From Sphyrna mokarran (Eukaryota), in the NCBI GenBank assembly GCA_024679065.1, contig JAGIQG010000021.1:41850001-41914000 (forward strand): a stretch of 64,000 nucleotides of DNA. Direction: 5' to 3'. Positions within the stretch are counted from its first letter, which is position 1; each line of letters starts with the position of its first letter. Below, piece after piece: positions 4,929 through 64,000 of this stretch. The notes below the pieces were generated by a model. The model was not told where the DNA came from, searched no databases, and worked only from the letters and a program-made list of their open reading frames with translations. Position numbers and translations under genes: made by a program.

Positions 4929-5034
4929 CTTCCCGGAAGTGTCTTTCTTCTTGGCGTCCCCTGCCGCTGCAACTGATGCAAAGTACTGAATGACACGTTT
5001 CGTGTTCACAGTCTTTCCGGCACCAGATTCTCCG
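4929..5034 (-). CDS. MYH: MYH exon 7 (P-loop GESGAGKT and loop 1 [11 protein letters not shown])
   Basis: 106 nt, gtccag / GTAAAA; keeps frame. Confidence 0.95.
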
Positions 5035-5145
5035 CTGGACAGGGCAGGAGTAGAAAACAAATCGTAATTACCGGAGACGATTAAAAATACCGGAGTCAAT
5101 TCCAATTGCATTAATTTGCTGAAAAGTTGAAGCAGTAACACTTAC

Positions 5146-5173
5146 GTGATCAAAATGGACTGGTTTTCACGAT
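5146..5173 (-). CDS. MYH: MYH exon 6 (DRENQSILIT)
   Basis: 28 nt, tttgcag / GTAAGT. Confidence 0.96.
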
Positions 5174-5222
5174 CTGCAAATAAGATGAAGGTGAGATCAA
5201 AGTTTAGATCACTGAGATTTCA

Positions 5223-5459
<237 letters not shown>

Positions 5460-5519
5460 CTACGGTAAGAGAAAACGTGTCTTATAAAGGAAGGGTCGCT
5501 GATTTGTTCAATGATACGT

Positions 5520-6120
5520 TTCATTTTGGAACTGAAAAGCGGCTGCAAGACTGAGACCTGGGGATTCTCATAGACGAACACTTCGAGGTGACAGGACAAA
5601 TTAATAATGCTGTCCTCCTTGGCTTTTAGACCTCGAGAGCAAGGACGTTATGCTAACCCTTGCCTAAATCTCCGATTGCATCTCAGTTGGAGTATTGTGT
5701 GGATTCACTTTCTGGAGGACCGCATGTGAATTCAGAGGCGATTATGGATGAGTGACTTCAGGTGTGGGAATAAGATGGGATTTTTGTTCCCGTTATAGCG
5801 AAGCAACTTAAATATAGATTCAACAGAAACGTTCAGAATTACAAAAGATTTGATAAAGTTAAACCATTTCAGCTGGCAGGAGGGCGAAGGACCAGAATTA
5901 GCCATGGAATCGACCAGAGGATAGGTGGAATTTATTTTATGCACAGGGTGTTATTGGGATCTGTATTGCGCTGTATGAAACACTGATCAGATTCAATTTT
6001 TAAAAAAAAGTGCGCTCGAAATAAAAACAAATGTGTAGGTGTGCTAGAAAAGAGTGAGGAGAGTGCCACTAATTAGATTGGCCTTACACTAAGTGCACTT
6101 CCGCGCAGTATGATGCTCTT
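5520..6120 (+). mobile_element. Old CR1 LINE 3' fragment in MYH intron 4
   Basis: Decayed CR1 RT tail motifs (ctcagttggagtattgtg, atttgataaagt, ttttatgcacagggtgtt..ggatctg). Confidence 0.6.
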
Positions 6121-6143
6121 GTCTGAAGCTCCCCGGTACTTAC

Positions 6144-6287
6144 ATAGATCATCCAGGCTGCATAACGCTCTTTGAGGTTATACAGCACAGCTGCTTCATT
6201 CAAGTGGGTCAACATGGCCATATCCTCGATTTTATCGAATTTCGGAGGGTTCATTGGGAAGACTTGGTCTTCTTTAACAGTTAACGT
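6144..6287 (-). CDS. MYH: MYH exon 4 ([48 protein letters not shown])
   Basis: 144 nt, ttttcag / GTAAGT. Confidence 0.97.
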
Positions 6288-6384
6288 CTGAAAAAAAGTC
6301 CGATGTTGATTAAAGAGATTTGGGTTTTGTGAAGACAGGAAAGCATTTCAGGATGATTTACTTATTTTCAATTTTTCAACTGAC

Positions 6385-6588
6385 CCTCTTGTCCAGGAGT
6401 GTCTCCACGGTGGCTTTACCACCCTCTTTGCTCTTGATTGTACCTTTCACATACAATTCTTTACTATCGATCACATAGCAGGCCGTTTTAGCGTCGAATG
6501 GTAGGTTCTGAGCTTCCAATCGCTCCTTATCAGGTTTGCGGAGGTAAATCGCTGCCTCTCCAAACACTGCCATTTCCGCATCCGTCAT
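6385..6588 (-). CDS. MYH: MYH exon 3, first coding part ([18 protein letters not shown]...ETLLDKR)
   Basis: ATG at 6588; 204 nt; donor GTCAGT at 6384; probable acceptor tttatag giving exon start 6625. Confidence 0.96.
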
Positions 6589-7009
6589 GGTTGCGATTTA
6601 CTGTCCAAACACAAGTGGTGTATGTCTATAAATGCTATCTCCAATTGAAAAGGAACACTCAATTGTTGTTAATATGTCCTCTGGACAATTAGAATTTCCC
6701 GACATAATGACCCCGCATTCAGTCCATTTTGAGCCCGTGTGAATTCGGATTACCGCTGTTGAGTGTGAATGGAGGGCTTTCATCTCACTGCGTTCAGTTA
6801 ATTCTGCTCCTGATAGCTATTCTGCAACACTAAGTTGGCTTAATGGTCTAAGGGCTGTCAAAATCGTAGCGTGACACATCTACTAAATTGTATAAAATAC
6901 ATCTCCCCGGTTTAATTGAGCGATTGATTGTATGTCAAACCTCGTATCTTTGGCCGCGCTTATATGAACTGAACTAGGTTAAAAGAATCCGTTTGTCACG
7001 TCCCTATCC

Positions 7010-7112
7010 AACTCCTCTCTCACTCTCTCTGCTGATGCTGTCAGACCTGCTGTTTTTTTTCCCAGCATTTTTTATTTTTAATTTGGATTTCCAACATCCA
7101 GAGGATTTTGCC
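7010..7112 (+). mobile_element. Penelope-like family B terminal fragment
   Basis: gatgctgtcagacctgctg...ccagcattt...ttccaacatc, shared with 23035-23130 and 26880-26955. Confidence 0.65.
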
Positions 7113-7115
7113 TCA

Positions 7116-7373
7116 AAAGTTAATTTATTCGTGTCACAAGTAGACTTACATTAACACTGCAATGAAGTTACTGTGAAAATCATTCACACTCTGATGCCTG
7201 TTCCGGAATACTGAGGGAGAATTTAGCATGGCCAATGCACCCTAACAGCGCGTCTTTTGGACTGTAGAAGGAAACTGGAGCATCTGGAGCAAGCCCATGC
7301 AGACACGGGGAGAATGTGCAAACTTCACACAGGCAGTGACTTAAGCTGCGAATCGAACCTGGGTCCCTCGTGC
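7116..7373 (-). mobile_element. HE1-like V-SINE (tail type 2)
   Basis: V-core plus ttcacagtaacttcattgcagtgttaatgtaag tail. Confidence 0.85.
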
Positions 7374-7397
7374 AAATTTCTATCTGTGCATATATTC

Positions 7398-7613
7398 TAC
7401 AACACCAATTTTAAATCCAACTGATTTATTTGATAGTAAATTCGCGAGCTTTCGACTCTATAGCCTTCGTCAGGCAAAACGAAGGTTATTGCCTGACGAA
7501 GGCTGTAGAGTCGAAAGCTCGCGAATTTACTATCAAATAAATTGGTTGGATTTAAAATTGGTGTTGTAAACCTTTACTGAGTTTACCCCAGTCCAACGCC
7601 GGCTTCTCTACAT
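7398..7613. mobile_element. Young Penelope-like (family A) fold-back insertion with hammerhead motifs in both arms
   Basis: 80-bp inverted arms 7398-7477 / 7489-7568 (3 mismatches); TSD CATATATTCTACA at 7389-7401 and 7614-7626. Confidence 0.9.
7440..7478 (-). ncRNA. Minimal type I hammerhead ribozyme motif (Penelope-associated)
   Basis: UUUGC-CUGACGA-A-GGCU(AUAG)AGUC-GAAA-GCUC-GCGAA. Confidence 0.7.
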
Positions 7614-8114
7614 CATATATTCTACAGCCAGGATCTACCTGTATTCAGCTTATTCTCTGGAAAAAGTTCAATTTTGTGACTGATAAATTGTCTTTATAAC
7701 ATGACAATAACCTTCGTCGTCGTCCTTTCCACCCCACCCACTAGCCGCTTGCATTGTAACCACAGGTTCACCCTACCGATTCATTTTCTGCTGTTAACAC
7801 CCAATCATAGAATTGTTACAGAGGAAACGCTCTGCACCAGTTCTCCCAAATAAGCAATTGACTTTCGTGGCACTGTCCTGCCTTCTTATTCAATAACATC
7901 GTATCTCTTCACTTTACATCTGGAGTGCATTCAGGTATGTCTACCTACGTGATTGCAACCGAAACAAAATACAAAGATGTACTAATGCACCGCAGATTCA
8001 AATCTGTGTGAGTAACCCAAGTGAAATGTCAACTGCACCGAAGTGGGGGTATCATAAGTCCCTGGCAAAGTTCTACAATGTTAGTTTGAGTTTAGTGACA
8101 TTGTGTCCGCATAC

Positions 8115-8174
8115 CTTGGTTATCTCCACACACCAACAGAAGGGAAATAAAGAACGACTTCAGCAACGGCTGCA
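8115..8174 (-). other. MYH: MYH non-coding exon 2 (5' UTR)
   Basis: Acceptor ttccttttgcag and donor AAG/GTATGC; fits the two-UTR-exon layout of vertebrate MYH genes. Confidence 0.7.
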
Positions 8175-8462
8175 CTGCAAAAGGAATAATTAGAAAACAT
8201 TAGCCTGATATTTTATTCAACGCATTAATTATCTGTAACCCACTGAAATAGCTCTGCTCATCATTTTTCAACTTGTATCGCGGTTTTCTTTTTTAATACA
8301 GTCTGCACTGACATCACAGCAAGCGTTCGGCAACGTGTCTAGACTCAGGGGATAATGTATTTAACAGCATTAAGTATGTTAAACTATGGCGGAGCTGAAA
8401 AAGACTAGCGACAGCATCTTTGTTAATGAGAAAAGCAGCAGCAGCATCATTGAAATACATAC

Positions 8463-8487
8463 GGGTGAAGCTGAGAGGGTAGGTGAT
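8463..8487 (-). other. MYH: MYH non-coding exon 1 (TSS approximate)
   Basis: Starts ~25-30 nt downstream of TATAAA; donor GTATGT at 8462. Confidence 0.65.
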
Positions 8488-8509
8488 TGGTGACTTCCCC
8501 CGCTGCATC

Positions 8510-8515
8510 TTTATA
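8510..8515 (-). promoter_or_regulatory. TATA box of MYH promoter
   Basis: GTCTATAAAGATG on the minus strand, at the expected distance from candidate exon 1. Confidence 0.75.
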
Positions 8516-8654
8516 GACAACCTCATTTTGCTGGCGCAGCAGAGCAAGCCTCTATATTTGTCCTACAAAGGACTTGATTCCCACCACCGCCACCCCTCCC
8601 CCTCCCCCTGACCTGCTTACCCCATCAAAATAAAACTCGCTTTCTCGTCCGAGG

Positions 8655-8664
8655 CTATTTTTAA
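8655..8664. promoter_or_regulatory. MEF2 site in MYH proximal promoter
   Basis: CTATTTTTAA matches YTA(W)4TAR, ~140 bp upstream of the TATA box; an AT-rich CAAATATAG element lies at ~8552-8560. Confidence 0.65.
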
Positions 8665-9149
8665 GAACGGGACGTCGGTCTGCACATATGGGGGAAAAAA
8701 ATGTCCTGGCTTTCTTCCAGCCAGTAAACATCTGAAAAAGTATTAGAAAATTAAGACCGCGTTTTTAACCGAGCGCAAGAATCCTTCGGTAACCTGTTTT
8801 GAGTTCAAAGCTTAAGCAAAAGAAAAGTGGTCACATTGGCTGAATTTTCAGCGGCATTAAAGTGACCCGTTGGTCGCATGGGTTCAGATGCTTCCCCACT
8901 TCTAGTTGAGTCTCATTATTTTCCGTATCTTTCCGTTCAGGGATATTTCAATTTACAATTCAGCAGGTTCCTGAATCTGATTTTTTTAGCCATCGAAACC
9001 TTCAGATAACTGGAACATTTCGGTTAATTCACTTAACCGATAGAGTGATGGTTCCCCCTACCTCATCACTACCAGTATATATTTAAAGACTTGCGAGCAT
9101 ATTCCGTCAATTTCGCCTTTAGTTTTGATGCGCTGACTCTGGGACTGAA

Positions 9150-9375
9150 TGTGGAGATGCCGGCGTTGGACTGGGATAAACACAGTAAGAAGTCTCACAA
9201 CATCAGGTTAAAGTCCTAAAGTTCATTTGGTAGCAAAAGCCACCAGTGGGAATTACCCACTTACCTGACGAAGGAGCGGCGCTCCGAAGACTAATGGCTT
9301 TTGCTAGCAAATAAAACCTGTTGGAATTTAACCTGGTGCTGTGTTTACCTCAGTCCAACGCCGGCAAATCCACAT
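9150..9375. mobile_element. Penelope-like family A fold-back insertion upstream of MYH promoter
   Basis: Inverted ends atgtggagatgccggcgttggactg / cagtccaacgccggcaaatccacat; core ctgacgaaggagcggcgctccgaag; TSD tctggga(c/a)tgaa. Confidence 0.85.
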
Positions 9376-9679
9376 CTGGGAATGAAGCCAGGTCGCTTGT
9401 GTGAGGTAGGTTTCACAGAGGACTCACCGGCTGCAGTACAACTGCAAATTGAGGTGACATTTTGAACCTCCCGGGTGTGCTTTTTTTTGTTTTAGATAGC
9501 AGCAGCGTGTGCTGCTGAAACTGCAATTGATTGTGTGAAGTTATATCTGAATAGCTGTAAGTGCGGGAAAAATTAAAATGGTGCAAGACTGAGATGAACG
9601 GGTTGTTGTTGGACGAGGGGTATTGATCAAAGTGTTGGTATTGGAAGAACAGATCAGCCATGATCCGGTTGAATGAGGA

Positions 9680-10220
9680 ACCGGCTCCAGGTCCTTCAAC
9701 AACAACATGTATGTAAAAAAAAGTCTCAACTCGCTTTACAAGAATGTTATAAAGTAAAATTTGACAGGGTACTAAAACTTTATTAAGTCAGGCGCCCATG
9801 AGCTTGGTCAAATAGATTTTACGGACTGTCTAAAAGGACGAAAGTGAGGTAGACAGAGCAAGAAGCTTAAGGAAGGAATTTCGGAGCTTGGCAGATCGGC
9901 AGCTGAAGGCATGGAGCGATTAAATTTGGGATGTGCACGAGGTCAAAATGATACCAGTATGGACACCTTGAAGGGTTTGGGGGCTGGAGGAGAATACAGT
10001 GATAATGAGAGACCAGGGCATGGGGAGATTTGAAAACAAGTGTGAGATATTTTGATGGAAAGCCAGTGCAGGTCATTGACACAGCGGTGATGAGAGAATG
10101 GGATTTGGTGAGACTAAGGATATGGACAGCAGAGATTTGGATGACCTCAAGAATAGAAGGTAACATTTGGGAGACCAGCTAAAGTGGGAATAGTCATACT
10201 TAAAGACAACAAAAGACAAT
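9680..10220 (-). mobile_element. L2 LINE 3' fragment
   Basis: Typical L2 antisense signature (ggagatttgaaaacaag, gggctggaggag, ttttggatgacctcaag-like). Confidence 0.6.
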
Positions 10221-27234: not shown

Positions 27235-29330
27235 TCTTACTTTATAGATAGAAATATAAGAGGTTTTAAGCCAAAGGAATGGGATACGGGGTGGGGTGAC
27301 AGGTAGAAAGATGAAAGAAGAAGGTCTATGATAGGATATAGGAGTGAGGGAGGGTAGAGGTGATTAAAAATACACAAACATCTGTGATTCAACAGCCAAA
27401 GAGAATGGGAATGGATATAGTGAGGAAACAAAGACCACCTTCAAATGAGGCATGAGTGGCTACATGAGAACTATCTGAAAATCATGATGTGGAGAAGCCA
27501 GCATTGGACCGGGATAAACACAGTAAGTAGTAAACCCACAAATTTCTGACCAGAACATTCCACTCATCTGACGAAGGAACAGCGTTCCAAAAGCTTGTGG
27601 GTTTGCTATCAAATAAACTTGTTGGACTTTAACCTGGTGTTGGGAGACTTCTTACTGTGTTTACGATTTTAAAGTAGCATGAAGAGTAAAGAAAGAAATC
27701 AGGTTTGATCCAACCCAGCAAAACAAATCACAAGACTTACTGAACAAGGAGAAGGCAGAATTTATGATTTAAAATTGTTGAACTCAGTATTGAGAACAGA
27801 AATCTGTACAATGCCTATCTGAAGGGTGAAGTGCTGTTGCTGAGCTTGCATTGGGTTTCACTGGAACACTGCAGCAGGCCATGAACAGAAAGGTCAGCAC
27901 AGAAGCAAGGTGGAGAATTTTATTGAAGGAAGCTCAGGATAATGCTTGCAGATTGAATAGATGTGTTCTGCAAAGTGATTACCCAGTCCGCATTTGGTCT
28001 CCCCAGTGCAAAGAAGGCCACATCTTGAGCAGTGAATATTGTGTAGCAAGCTGAAAGAATCACAGGAGAATTTGGGGTCTTGGGCAGGAACTATTAACTC
28101 CTGTGATTGTACAGAGAGGTGCCTCATGGAAGGATCGGAATATTAGGGGTGACTGATGAGTGGACTGGGTTTTCACAGAGGCAATGGCCTCTATGAAATG
28201 CTAAAAGGGAGGACAGGGGAAGACAGGTTTGGGGGTCACATCAAGTTGGAGCAGAAAGAAATGGTTGAAGATGATCATTTAATATGGAGGCTGGTGGCAT
28301 GGAAGGTGAAGACAAGTGGAACCCAATCATAGTCCTGGAAGGAGGGAAAGAGATGATCGCAGAGTTGCATAATATGGATTGGACTCAGAGACTATCTGAC
28401 AACCATGTTGGGTGGAAAGCCTTGGTTGTTGAAAAAGGAAGACATGTGACCTGTCAAAAGTGCTGCTGTAGGAGATTGCATCAATGGAGCATATGCGATA
28501 GAGATGAAGGAGCTGCGAAAATGTAATAGGGTCTTTCCATGAAGCAGGGTGTGAGAAAATGTACCTAGGGAACTGTGGGAGTCTGTGAGTATGTGGTGAA
28601 TATTTGAACACAGCCTATCTCCAGAAATGGAGATGGAGAAATCAAAAAAAGGAAGAGTAAAAGATGAGTCAGGTGAAGATATAAGGATGGAAATTGGAAA
28701 GAGTGGTAGTTGGCACCAATTATCAACGTATTGGAAAAAGAGATGAAGGAATGAGTCTGAGTAGAAATGGAATAATAATTGTCCTACATATTCCACAAAC
28801 AGGCAGGGAACCATGTGATTATCCAAAGAAACACCTTTTATTTGGAGGAAGTAAGTAGTTGAAGGAAAGGTTGTTCAGAATGAGAACAAGTGCAGCCAGC
28901 AGGAGGAGGGTGGTGGTGGATGGGGAATTGTTGGACATTTCTTCAAGGAAGAAGCAGAAAGCTCCTAGATCATCTTGTTGGGGAATGGAGGTAAAGAAGG
29001 ATTGTGCTTCTATCATGGGCAAGTTAGCACCAGGAAACTGGAAACTGTTGCATTGACATAGGCTATTAGAAGAGCTATGGGTGTAGATTGGAAGAGACTA
29101 CTACACAAGGGTAGAAACAAATTGAGTAGAGATAAGAAGAAATAGGTTCAGTGGAACACGAACAGGCTCAAATGAGTCAAATGCAGCAGTCTTGCTGATG
29201 GATCTTGGGAAGGATGTAGAAGTGGGCTGTTCAAGGTTAGGGAACTAAGAGGTGGGAGGCAATGGAGGAAAGATCTGCAGAAGCTTTGAGGTTAGTGACA
29301 TTCCTGGACATAATGCCTTGATATTCAGTC
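27235..29330 (-). mobile_element. Decayed Penelope-like retroelement (RT + GIY-YIG endonuclease)
   Basis: SFFTSIPQQD..ALVLILNNLSFN, CLFVEYV..LFFQYVDN (RT), KDPITFSQLLHLYRICS, and NIHCSRCGLLCTGETK..FAEH (GIY-YIG with CxxC); multiple frameshifts. Confidence 0.88.
27485..27665. mobile_element. Penelope-like family A short fold-back inserted in the older Penelope 3' region
   Basis: gatgtggagaagccagcattggac...ctgacgaaggaacagcgttcc...cttcttactgtgtttac. Confidence 0.8.
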
Positions 29331-42049: not shown

Positions 42050-43024
42050 TGTGGTAATATAATCAGAGCCTAGTTTTATGGTTGATTAAATTGGATATCC
42101 TAAATTAAAGAATTGGGCATGTTAAAATCAACACAGTCAAACCTTGGGCAGGCCAATTATACAAATACACAAATGTGTGGGCCTGACCCTTCAATCACCC
42201 TTCAAAGGTCATTGCACTCTACAGATACTTAGCAGGAGATCATTGCACCCCATTGAAATGCGCTGGTCTATTGTTAGAAACCCAGATCAGTCCAGACTTT
42301 CTGTCATCAAGACTTTCACCAAGACAGCAGTGTGTGTCTTCACATGCCTTTCTCTGATCAGAACTTTCCATGCACCTGGCGAAGGAACACTTTCTGAAAG
42401 CTTGTGGGATTACTATCAAATAAACTGGTTGAACTTAAACCGGTGTTTAGAAACTTCTTACTGTGTCTACTCTAGTCCATTTCTACATCATGACCGAGAC
42501 TTGCTGCAGTTACCTTATCTGATAACAAGTTACATGGAGATGAACACCTGGTGCCCAGTCAGGCAGATATCAAGAAACCCACAGGATATTGGAACGCTTT
42601 CCTGCAACCTTATCAGCCGGAAGCCAGAGAAGTTTCTGGAAAGGCAAGTAGGTAGGGGGACAAAGGTACACATCTCAGATACATAAGGAGTGAAGACCCA
42701 AAGAGGGAGGTGACCCTGACCATCTGGAAGACTGACCAGAGAAGGAAAGAAGGAAGAAACTGCCACCGAAATTCACCTTTGTGTCGACGGATCAGAGGGA
42801 ATCAGATAATCAGTTTAACAAAACCATCTTTGTAGGTTGTATACTTGAATCTAGGGTATCCTCTTATTTTATGTGGGTAATTTAAGGGTTAATAGTGTTG
42901 TTATGAATAAACTTGTTGAACCTTTCCTTATTGTCCTTTGTCCATCTTGCAAATAAGGGCGTCGGGGTAAAACTTTGGATTAAGTAAACTGGTCAAAAGT
43001 ATCTGAGAATTAACAGTTACAACA
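42050..43024 (+). mobile_element. Probable solo LTR with a Penelope family A fragment inserted (~42340-42492)
   Basis: Termini TGTGGTAA...TTACAACA (imperfect inverted, TG..CA); internal AATAAA at ~42906; flanks acac/ccac. Confidence 0.5.
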
Positions 43025-55433: not shown

Positions 55434-55461
55434 ATTCATTGTCCATGCCTCTATATTAGTG

Positions 55462-56132
55462 AAGTTTTACAACACCAATTTTAAATCCAACCAATTTATT
55501 TGATAGTAAATTCGCGAGCTTTCGACTCTATAGCCTTTGTCAGGCAAATGCAGTGTTCTGGTCTGCAATAGCACTCATATCAACACAAACAGTCACAGAT
55601 TGCTGATTAGAATGCGAATCCTTACATCTAACCTGCTATTCAAGTGTTAAAGTGGCTAACAATGTGTGTGAAGGAAATCCTGAGCATTGGTTAGAGAATT
55701 GTGTATTTTCTCCAGACAGCACAGTAAGTGAGATTTTTTGCTAACCCAGGCAAGTTACGGGGGTTACAGATAGTGTGTCATGAAGCCAAGATCCCGATTA
55801 AGACCGTCCTCATGTGTGAGGAACTTGGCTATCAGTCTCTGCTCAGCAACTCTGCACTGTCGTGTGTCACGAAGGCCCCCTTGTTCTTCATTGTTAGCCA
55901 CTTTAACACTTGAATAGCAGGTTAAATGTAAGGATTCGTATTCTAATCAGCAATCTGTAACTGTCTGTGTTGATATGAGTGCTATTGCAGACCAGAACAC
56001 TGCATTTGCCTGACGAAGGCTATAGAGTCGAAAGCTCGCGAATTTACTATCAAATAAATTGGTTGGATTTAAAATTGGTGTTGTAAAACTTTACTGAGTT
56101 TACCCCAGTCCAACGCCGGCATCTCTACATCA
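55462..56132. mobile_element. Young Penelope-like family A insertion with inverted pLTR arms, endonuclease C-terminus and hammerhead
   Basis: Arms ~55464-55664 / ~55889-56091; minus-strand 55775-55883 reads QGGLRDTRQCRVAEQRLIAKFLTHEDGLNRDLGFMTHYL*; TSD TCTATATTAGTG at 55450-55461 and 56133-56144. Confidence 0.92.
56004..56043 (+). ncRNA. Minimal type I hammerhead ribozyme motif
   Basis: Stem I AUUUGC/GCGAAU, core CUGACGA(+A), stem II GGCU/AGUC, GAAA, palindromic AGCU stem III, predicted cleavage after C56037. Confidence 0.72.
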
Positions 56133-62799: not shown

Positions 62800-63665
62800 A
62801 AGTGAGTGGCGCAAACCTGGTGCGACTTTTAACAGGGAATCTGACTCATTCGGTGTTCCCTGTGAAACGACATTCCCATTTGTTGCAACAGCCGGTTTTA
62901 CGTGAGGATTGAGGAAGGAAAGGAATCTGCAACCCGTCAACAGAAGCAGTATTGCCACAGCCGAGAGAGCACGATTTCAATTGTTTAAAGACTAGGATCT
63001 GAAGAACTAGGATGGGTTAGGGATGTGTTGTCTTATTTCTCTTAAAGTCCCCATTTCTGTGTAAGGGGGAGGGTCTGAATGGGTTTACTGAAGAAGCAAA
63101 AAAAATAATGGTTATCAGATATGAGAATCATGATTACCAAGAAAAAACATATGGAGCTCGAAGGACGAGCTGTTTTTTTTAAAAAAAATGCGTGGACCTT
63201 GTGGAGCCTGATATACAATGCAACTGTTACTTCTGGTGAATGTTATTTTGTTTATTTATTCAAAACACTAGGGAACTCCGATCCTCATCACTGCACGCAT
63301 TCAAATGATTTACAATGGGAGAGTTATCAGTTGGGTTTCCTTCCCGTCAAAGCGCCACCATTCAGAATTGCAACAGCAGCTCCACCGCTGAAAACATAGA
63401 GGGAGGAAATCATCGGAACGGTTACACTTTTCTCTCTCTTCCCCCTTCTCTTGTCAGTCCTACCCAATTCGGCATGACCTCAGCCCTGAGTCATATGGTG
63501 AGGTTGAGACAAACAATGAGGGAGTTCTAAGTGTAACATCTAGATCGAGAAAGGGGAGGAAGAGGAGAGGTGGTAGAGGAAAAGAAAGAGCAGAGAGAGA
63601 GAGAGGAAAACACACATTTTTGGATCTTTCGCCAGCCCAGCTCGTAGAACAGCGAGGAATCCGCT
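62800..63665 (+). promoter_or_regulatory. GAS7 promoter/5' UTR region
   Basis: CpG-retaining, repeat-free stretch with a GA-rich tract (63548-63610) directly upstream of the SH3 exon. Confidence 0.55.
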
Positions 63666-63845
63666 ATGGCCGGAGTTCTGTGCAAAACTTTGTACGCCTT
63701 CAGCGGGGACCAGCATCAGCAGGGACTGAAGTTCGAGGCTGGGGAGATCATCAAGGTTTTACAGGTGCTGAATGGTGGCTGGTGGGAAGGAGAGAAGGAT
63801 GGGGTCAGGGGATGGTTCCCTGCAAGTTATGTGGAGATTCTAGAG
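63666..63845 (+). CDS. GAS7: GAS7 first coding exon, N-terminal SH3 domain (MAGVLCKTLYAFSGDQHQQGLKFEAGEIIKVLQVLNGGWWEGEKDGVRGWFPASYVEILE)
   Basis: Closely resembles the human GAS7 long-isoform N-terminus as recalled (MSGARCRTLYPFSGERHGQGLRF...GGWWEGEK...GWFPASYV); donor GAG/GTGAGC at 63846; GAS7 flanks the MYH cluster in vertebrates. Confidence 0.93.
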
Positions 63846-64000
63846 GTGAGCTGCTCGCGAAAGAAAAAAAAATAACTGGCATTCTCGTCGACTCGATCAA
63901 ATCGTGCAGAATTTGATTGCCGTAGTTGTCTGTGCTGTTATTATTGTGTTGTTGACTGTCTATGCACTGAAAGTTCAACCTCGGTTACACGTTGCAAAGC

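Follow-up and report, generated by a model that had tools for sequence, protein, structure and literature searches.

A recent head-to-head insertion of Penelope-like end copies as the probable source of a hammerhead-bearing hairpin in a myosin heavy chain intron of Sphyrna mokarran

Main finding

In a 64,000-nt stretch of Sphyrna mokarran DNA (the window; positions below refer to it), a long hairpin carrying a hammerhead ribozyme motif on each strand lies in an intron of a sarcomeric myosin heavy chain (MYH) gene. Our analysis makes it highly probable that positions 7389-7626 represent a single, evolutionarily recent insertion of two 5'-truncated, Neptune-type Penelope-like element (PLE) end copies arranged head to head, with the hairpin most likely a by-product of insertion and the ribozyme likely idle with or without it.

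Host gene and position of the hairpin

The host gene, on the minus strand, was identified as a sarcomeric MYH by a Pfam Myosin_N domain and matches to myosins in the PDB. Sequence inspection placed its predicted promoter and exon 1 at 8463-8560 (minus strand), including motifs that we take to be, by name, a MEF2-like site (~8560) and a TATA box (TATAAA, 8515-8510), with exon 1 ending at 8463 and a donor at 8462; the order of promoter motifs was the same in two MYH paralogues. Non-coding exon 2 (8115-8174, minus strand) is defined by splice signals and an exact contig match, and the first coding exon, exon 3 (6379-6600, minus strand), has its ATG at 6588, leaving an intron 2 of 8114-6601 as read from the splice signals. 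The contig in question (404 nt; run X23, run type not on record) is identical over 8115-8174 and ends at both predicted splice sites, which puts the MYH start site upstream of the hairpin and not downstream of 7398, the position that would have spoken against an earlier, preliminary description of this DNA. The exon positions and the X23 match thus bear out that description's placement of the hairpin inside intron 2, a 5' UTR intron, in which ~490 nt separate it from the donor and ~790 nt from the acceptor.

The host gene is the outermost of eight MYH paralogues on the same contig. These compact genes, five on the minus and three on the plus strand, occupy G000:C783:41.34-41.86 Mb (L091-L130), and the seven of them that were mapped have coding spans of 17-25 kb. 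The promoter and 5' exons of the host gene differ from those of the two neighbouring MYH genes checked. At 63543-63872 on the plus strand, divergent from the MYH gene, lies an SH3-domain exon that we presume to resemble the first exon of GAS7; in human, GAS7 and MYH lie on the same strand.

The hairpin and its two hammerhead motifs

The inverted repeat consists of two 80-nt arms, 7398-7477 and 7489-7568, which are 96% complementary and separated by an 11-nt spacer. Its three mismatches (7461/7505, 7423/7543 and 7422/7544) are all A-C pairs on the MYH strand. The minus-strand fold of 7380-7630 reached -145.7 kcal/mol (z -22.3), and 0 of 200 shuffles were equally stable. Arm coordinates and fold statistics therefore confirm the fold-back as first described, an 80-bp stem with an 11-nt loop and three mismatches. 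That description covered 7398-7568; the extent of the hairpin stands, but the element runs on to a tail and a 13-bp target site duplication (TSD), so that the unit is 7389-7626.

The minus copy contains a minimal type I hammerhead (7441-7478, minus strand), sense in the MYH pre-mRNA, with a 5-bp stem I (7478-7474 with 7445-7441), CUGACGA at 7473-7467, then one unpaired A, a stem II of 4 bp and GAAA-GC-UC, the GAAA being at 7453-7450. C17 falls at 7446, and from the sequence the cut is predicted 3' of 7446. The plus copy has its hammerhead at 7489-7524 (CUGACGA at 7493, stem I of 4 bp), antisense in the pre-mRNA. Both arms share CUGACGA, the unpaired A, the 4-bp stem II and GAAA-GC-UC, that is, the core and stems I and II, and the stem III region A15.1-G-C-U16.1 is self-complementary, a palindrome permitting a dimer. 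The claim of a full motif on both strands, with an intact CUGACGA/GAAA/UC core in the sense copy, thus holds on the sequence itself. It is also true that the antisense arm is transcribed first, which is uninformative, since either strand of every head-to-head pair shows that order. An Rfam scan of 5000-10000 matched no hammerhead family and returned only miRNA-like hairpin scores of 18-40 bits, against cut-offs of 70-92.

Structure and age of the insertion

The unit is bounded by an exact 13-bp TSD at 7389-7401 and 7614-7626 (plus strand). The last 4 nt of the left TSD copy are common to the end of the minus copy, and the first 3 nt of the right one to the end of the tail. The minus-strand copy (7398-7478) is 5'-truncated, lacks a tail, lies sense in the MYH pre-mRNA and agrees with a long copy of the family (L012) at 76 of 81 positions; its tail-less end falls ~10 nt short of the usual family position. 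The plus-strand copy (7489-7616), likewise 5'-truncated and antisense in the pre-mRNA, matches L012 at 124 of 128 positions and extends beyond the hairpin with a tail of ~35 nt that ends at 7613-7616. Both arms are thus ~94-97% identical to the end of L012, and no ORF is left in 7389-7626.

The two copies meet in a patch that forms the loop (7479-7491, plus strand) and is the exact reverse complement of 7705-7717. This stretch, read on the minus strand, belongs to the host intron and lies 80 nt past the insertion; it is the likely donor of the patch and is covered by an orthologous contig of a related organism, D. Matches of this kind to the flanks arose by chance in 84 of 20,000 random 20-mers.

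Over 7614-8700, the D contig (1,414 nt, run X8) aligns with 73 differing letters and 29 gaps. The match begins exactly at the right TSD copy, and the alignment placed none of the 76 nt upstream of it on the element. The insertion site therefore appears empty in D, as judged from the aligned part of one contig. Conservation at the orthologous site, as in domestication of the RECK type, was not seen in this one contig, which stops short of the element. As to polymorphism within the species, the one run of the same organism, X1, possibly the assembly's own sample, carries the tail-flank junction.

The element family

Exact matches to the ribozyme core numbered 194 in the genome and those to a 41-nt word downstream of it at least 3,391, compared with 0 for the reversed control of each. 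Long copies contain a single ORF encoding a reverse transcriptase (RT) followed by a GIY-YIG-like domain; in one of them, L149, RVT_1 scored above its cut-off (E 1e-9) and GIY-YIG just below the Pfam cut-off (E 3e-4). The translation of L012 has a C-x4-C-xx-C linker ahead of GIY-YIG, and a CX2-5CxxC linker in this position is described as the mark of Neptune and Nematis PLEs (PMC8557442). The element is accordingly an endonuclease-bearing (EN+) PLE, and its linker fits Nematis as well as Neptune. Family domains, the pLTR layout and the TSD together bear out the preliminary identification of a PLE with a minimal type I hammerhead. L149 is near full-length and the first Met of its ORF lies at the tail end, so that the start codon and one of the RT start sites fall together.

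The family was sampled through the 100 first-listed matches of the 41-nt word, 99 of which aligned to the long copy used as reference. Their 3' ends fell into two groups, 48/99 at reference positions 1588-1601 and 50/99 at 1624-1629, with one between; the ~35 nt separating these groups are the tail. Among the matches listed we counted 79 insertion loci, after dropping two duplicate views, and 40 of these had the head-to-head layout. Among 55 intact hammerheads sampled, 24 had no covering partner in view, while a partner lay within 100 nt in 5, at 101-1,000 nt in 14 and further away in 12. Inspection by eye of the 100 of 194 core matches listed showed at least three further tight hairpins, nearly identical to this one and each with two exact copies of the core. 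The head-to-head layout is routine in this family and not special to the MYH hairpin.

The window holds further Penelope sequences. A second young insertion of the same family at 55458-56112 combines a 430-nt minus copy, which carries the last ORF codons, with a tailed 224-nt plus copy, head to head between 11-bp TSDs, and has an intact core in the plus copy only. An older-subfamily head-to-head pair with a changed GAAA box lies at 9162-9362, ~700 bp ahead of the TATA box of the MYH gene. Decayed Penelope ends, several of them nested inverted repeats, occur at 22133-23033, 27526-27664 and 42396-42479, and a hammerhead-like core at 22375 is from a different family. Elsewhere, a fold-back Penelope insertion at G000:C783:41702500-41702900 (L096), internally duplicated and with four hammerhead-like copies, lies upstream of the promoter of another MYH gene, at a distance of 600-700 bp.

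Formation of the insertion

In the mechanism that we propose, the element endonuclease would have nicked both target strands 13 bp apart, and each nick would have primed reverse transcription through 3-4 nt of homology at either of two RNA sites ~35 nt apart, which would explain why only one side has a tail. Synthesis of both cDNAs would have stopped a little beyond the hammerhead, probably where the RNA has its capped 5' end; their ends would then have been trimmed by 3-4 nt and joined via a short patch templated by DNA close by. Within the MYH pre-mRNA, pairing of the arms would give a duplex of 80 bp, to be removed with intron 2 by splicing and degraded; the insertion itself is probably neutral. 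The 3-4 nt that each element end has in common with the TSD fit priming on both strands, and the junction patch appears to be templated, made during the joining of the two cDNA ends. Such a templated patch resembles polymerase-theta end joining. Cutting and extension of both target strands from two tail-defining RNA sites has been described for a Penelope protein (PMC11167929).

The same neutral element could also have arisen by another route, in which a single cDNA snapped back and self-primed its second arm in place of two separately primed cDNAs being joined. Palindromic junctions do recur in the family, and PMC3846280 interprets such junctions in this way; we nevertheless regard this route as unlikely. 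Ends without a tail are found in solo copies as well, confined to the same narrow position, and therefore look like priming sites; moreover, both ends of the MYH-intron insertion share 3-4 nt with the target, and the loop derives from the flank and not from the element.

5' ends of the family copies

The 5' ends of family copies pile up at reference position 1497, which lies 8 nt ahead of the core and 2 nt ahead of stem I: 7/99 copies start there, against an expectation of ~0.33 for each position (P 6e-6 after correction), or 4/99 when fold-back joints are excluded (P 0.04). The ribozyme cut site was considered as another starting point and rejected, since no pile-up was seen there, with 0/99 copies beginning at reference 1533 and 3/99 within 1533-1544. 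The MYH-intron arms start 3-4 nt inside the 1497 hot spot (3 nt for the minus copy).

Copies beginning at 1497 are often preceded by an extra G. In 30 of the 347 matches for a 1497 start, 25 begin there, and the preceding base is G in 18, A in 5 and C in 2 (G vs A, P 0.0004; without fold-back joints 11 vs 5, P 0.03). A by-eye tally of the 100 of 347 matches listed gave G 49, A 17 and C 7, including 24 G unexplained by a partner arm (P 0.02). Genome-wide start totals were 201 at reference 1495, 373 at 1496 and 347 at 1497, each mixed with point mutants; many of the 1496 matches are palindromic joints, compatible also with two 1497 ends, and the 1498 control, with 1,036 matches, was dominated by copies of a sister subfamily and could not be used.

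The pile-up and its extra G suggest run-off at a capped RNA start, and RT stalling or micro-homology at the joints could also contribute to the peak. The stubs could then correspond, for Penelope elements, to the strong-stop DNA of retroviruses: RT from 5'-proximal start sites would run off the capped end, copying the cap as G, and the products would be integrated singly or as head-to-head pairs. We advance this interpretation tentatively, as a serious possibility that falls a little short of being favoured. A literature search, with most subscription papers outside its reach, found nothing relevant on a cap or strong-stop signal in PLEs.

Masking of the ribozyme and tolerance by the host

Structure prediction supports the earlier proposal that the hairpin masks the ribozyme, with a predicted cost of 63 kcal/mol for the hammerhead fold inside the hairpin and a mean hammerhead-pair probability of 7e-14. 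The further step, that masking explains tolerance of the motif in a muscle gene, was not borne out. The isolated arm is also predicted to misfold, by 3.5 kcal/mol (8.6 with the loop), and the layout is the normal one of the family (40/79). No second same-strand hammerhead copy for a cis dimer was found in the host MYH transcript, the other copy being on the opposite strand; with one sense copy, the pre-mRNA can form no cis dimer. In published tests, monomers of the minimal type I hammerhead gave no detectable cleavage (PMC4209133) and the anole (PAc) monomer did not cleave without element protein (PMC11167929). Masking is thus probably unneeded, since there is one sense copy only and such monomers were inactive in these tests.

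Selection for masking would nonetheless predict a pattern across genes: a sense copy left unmasked would cleave the pre-mRNA and be removed by selection, and only zipped or mutated ribozymes would persist in strongly transcribed muscle introns. We compared copies in the introns of titin, seven MYH genes and the greater part of nebulin, a small set of low power, leaving out copies near two other MYH genes as these lie upstream of the promoters; partners in titin were detected with a young-family query only, and those from older subfamilies may be missed. In this small sample, 3/3 intact sense cores had an adjacent inverted partner and 0/6 solo sense copies were intact, as masking predicts. A titin intron also contains a solo sense stub of the young family with one change in its GAAA box (G000:C113:39696022, L239), which begins at the 5'-end hot spot and is preceded by an extra G. 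However, solo antisense copies were nearly as decayed (1/6 intact, a difference that is not significant at this low power; on a first tally of 0/5 vs 1/7 intact, Fisher's test gave P = 1), titin solo copies were evenly divided between 4 sense and 4 antisense, and half of all sampled insertions show the layout without selection. A preprint (10.64898/2026.07.22.740005) points both ways, reporting that Xenopus introns are depleted of hammerhead-bearing tandem retrozymes and that 8/9 Xenopus hammerhead dimers showed no cleavage. Taken with the inactivity of monomers in the published tests and the single sense copy, these data make selection for masking improbable, despite the energetic cost that the hairpin imposes on the hammerhead fold. 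Within the 464-kb MYH cluster, 1/31 family matches fell inside the ~142 kb of MYH coding spans, so that MYH genes may resist insertions.

A duplex of this kind might instead act on the host. ADAR favours A-C mismatches, and Microprocessor prefers stems of roughly 35 bp. An effect through ADAR editing, small RNAs or altered splicing of intron 2, influencing MYH expression or silencing the family, is very unlikely in spite of the near-perfect 80-bp duplex in a pre-mRNA and the A-C pairs at all three mismatches of the MYH strand, given that the insertion is recent and apparently absent in organism D, the hairpin is well inside the intron (~490 nt on the donor side, ~790 nt on the acceptor side), its length exceeds twice that which Microprocessor prefers, and similar hairpins are common in the genome, so that this locus is not special. 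Incidental editing of the duplex, which would not be a function, is plausible.

Comparison with known systems

Complex insertions of endonuclease-bearing PLEs combine a 5'-truncated copy, an adjacent inverted pLTR, a tail of 30-40 bp and a short TSD (PMC8557442), and Pen2a_Av is an example (PMC3846280). The MYH unit resembles these in its head-to-head arrangement, the tail on one side, the short TSD and the hammerhead inside the pLTR, and long family copies share the CX2-5CxxC linker of the Neptune/Nematis type; it differs in that its copies are only 81 and 128 nt long, contain no ORF and are joined by a patch copied from the flank.

Minimal hammerheads of metazoan PLEs have a CUGANGA/GAAA/UH core, an unpaired base before stem II, G10.1-C11.1, a short stem I, a palindrome at positions 15.2-16.2 and a stem III that is not stable (PMC4209133). 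The MYH-intron motif shares the core, the unpaired base, G10.1-C11.1, the short stem I and the palindrome without a stable stem III, whereas its stem II has 4 bp, compared with 7-8 bp in schistosomes (PMC4209133). Opposite-strand pairs of minimal hammerheads have been described at distances of 100-700 bp (Cervera and de la Pena 2014, PMC4209133), and the two motifs in the MYH intron are only 20 nt apart.

In PAc, a Poseidon element of Anolis carolinensis, two RT start sites ~80-120 nt downstream of the hammerhead define the tail (Frangieh et al. 2024, PMC11167929). The present family likewise appears to have two tail-defining RT start sites, and both target strands would be cut and extended. 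PAc is a member of the Penelope/Poseidon clade with an ORF that begins in stem II, whereas here the first Met is at the tail end and the linker is of the Neptune type. The amniote intronic hammerheads of RECK, CTCL/C10orf118 and DTNB are canonical and deeply conserved (PMC6155905); the MYH-intron hammerhead is similarly of type I, sense and intronic, but it is minimal, recent, multi-copy and sequestered.

Implications

The MYH-intron unit is ordinary transposon debris with a layout already described in PMC8557442, PMC3846280 and PMC4209133, and the locus in itself carries little weight, being one among many similar stubs. Its value lies in its record, a clean fossil, 240 bp in length, of Penelope-type insertion, the mechanism of which is so far poorly understood. 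It preserves in readable form the two priming sites and their micro-homologies, the TSD, a junction templated from the flank and an apparent empty site in a relative.

Selected masking, if it were shown, would provide population evidence for minimal PLE hammerheads cutting host RNA in vivo, and we know of no earlier evidence of this kind, from a non-exhaustive survey. If the 5'-end pile-up marks the capped start, it would allow a test of the point at which the elements start and of whether hammerhead cleavage precedes copying. Should the stubs indeed be strong-stop products, the start site of the element would lie at the edge of stem I, the template in vivo would be uncut RNA, and the abundance of solitary and fold-back minimal hammerheads in genomes would be accounted for.
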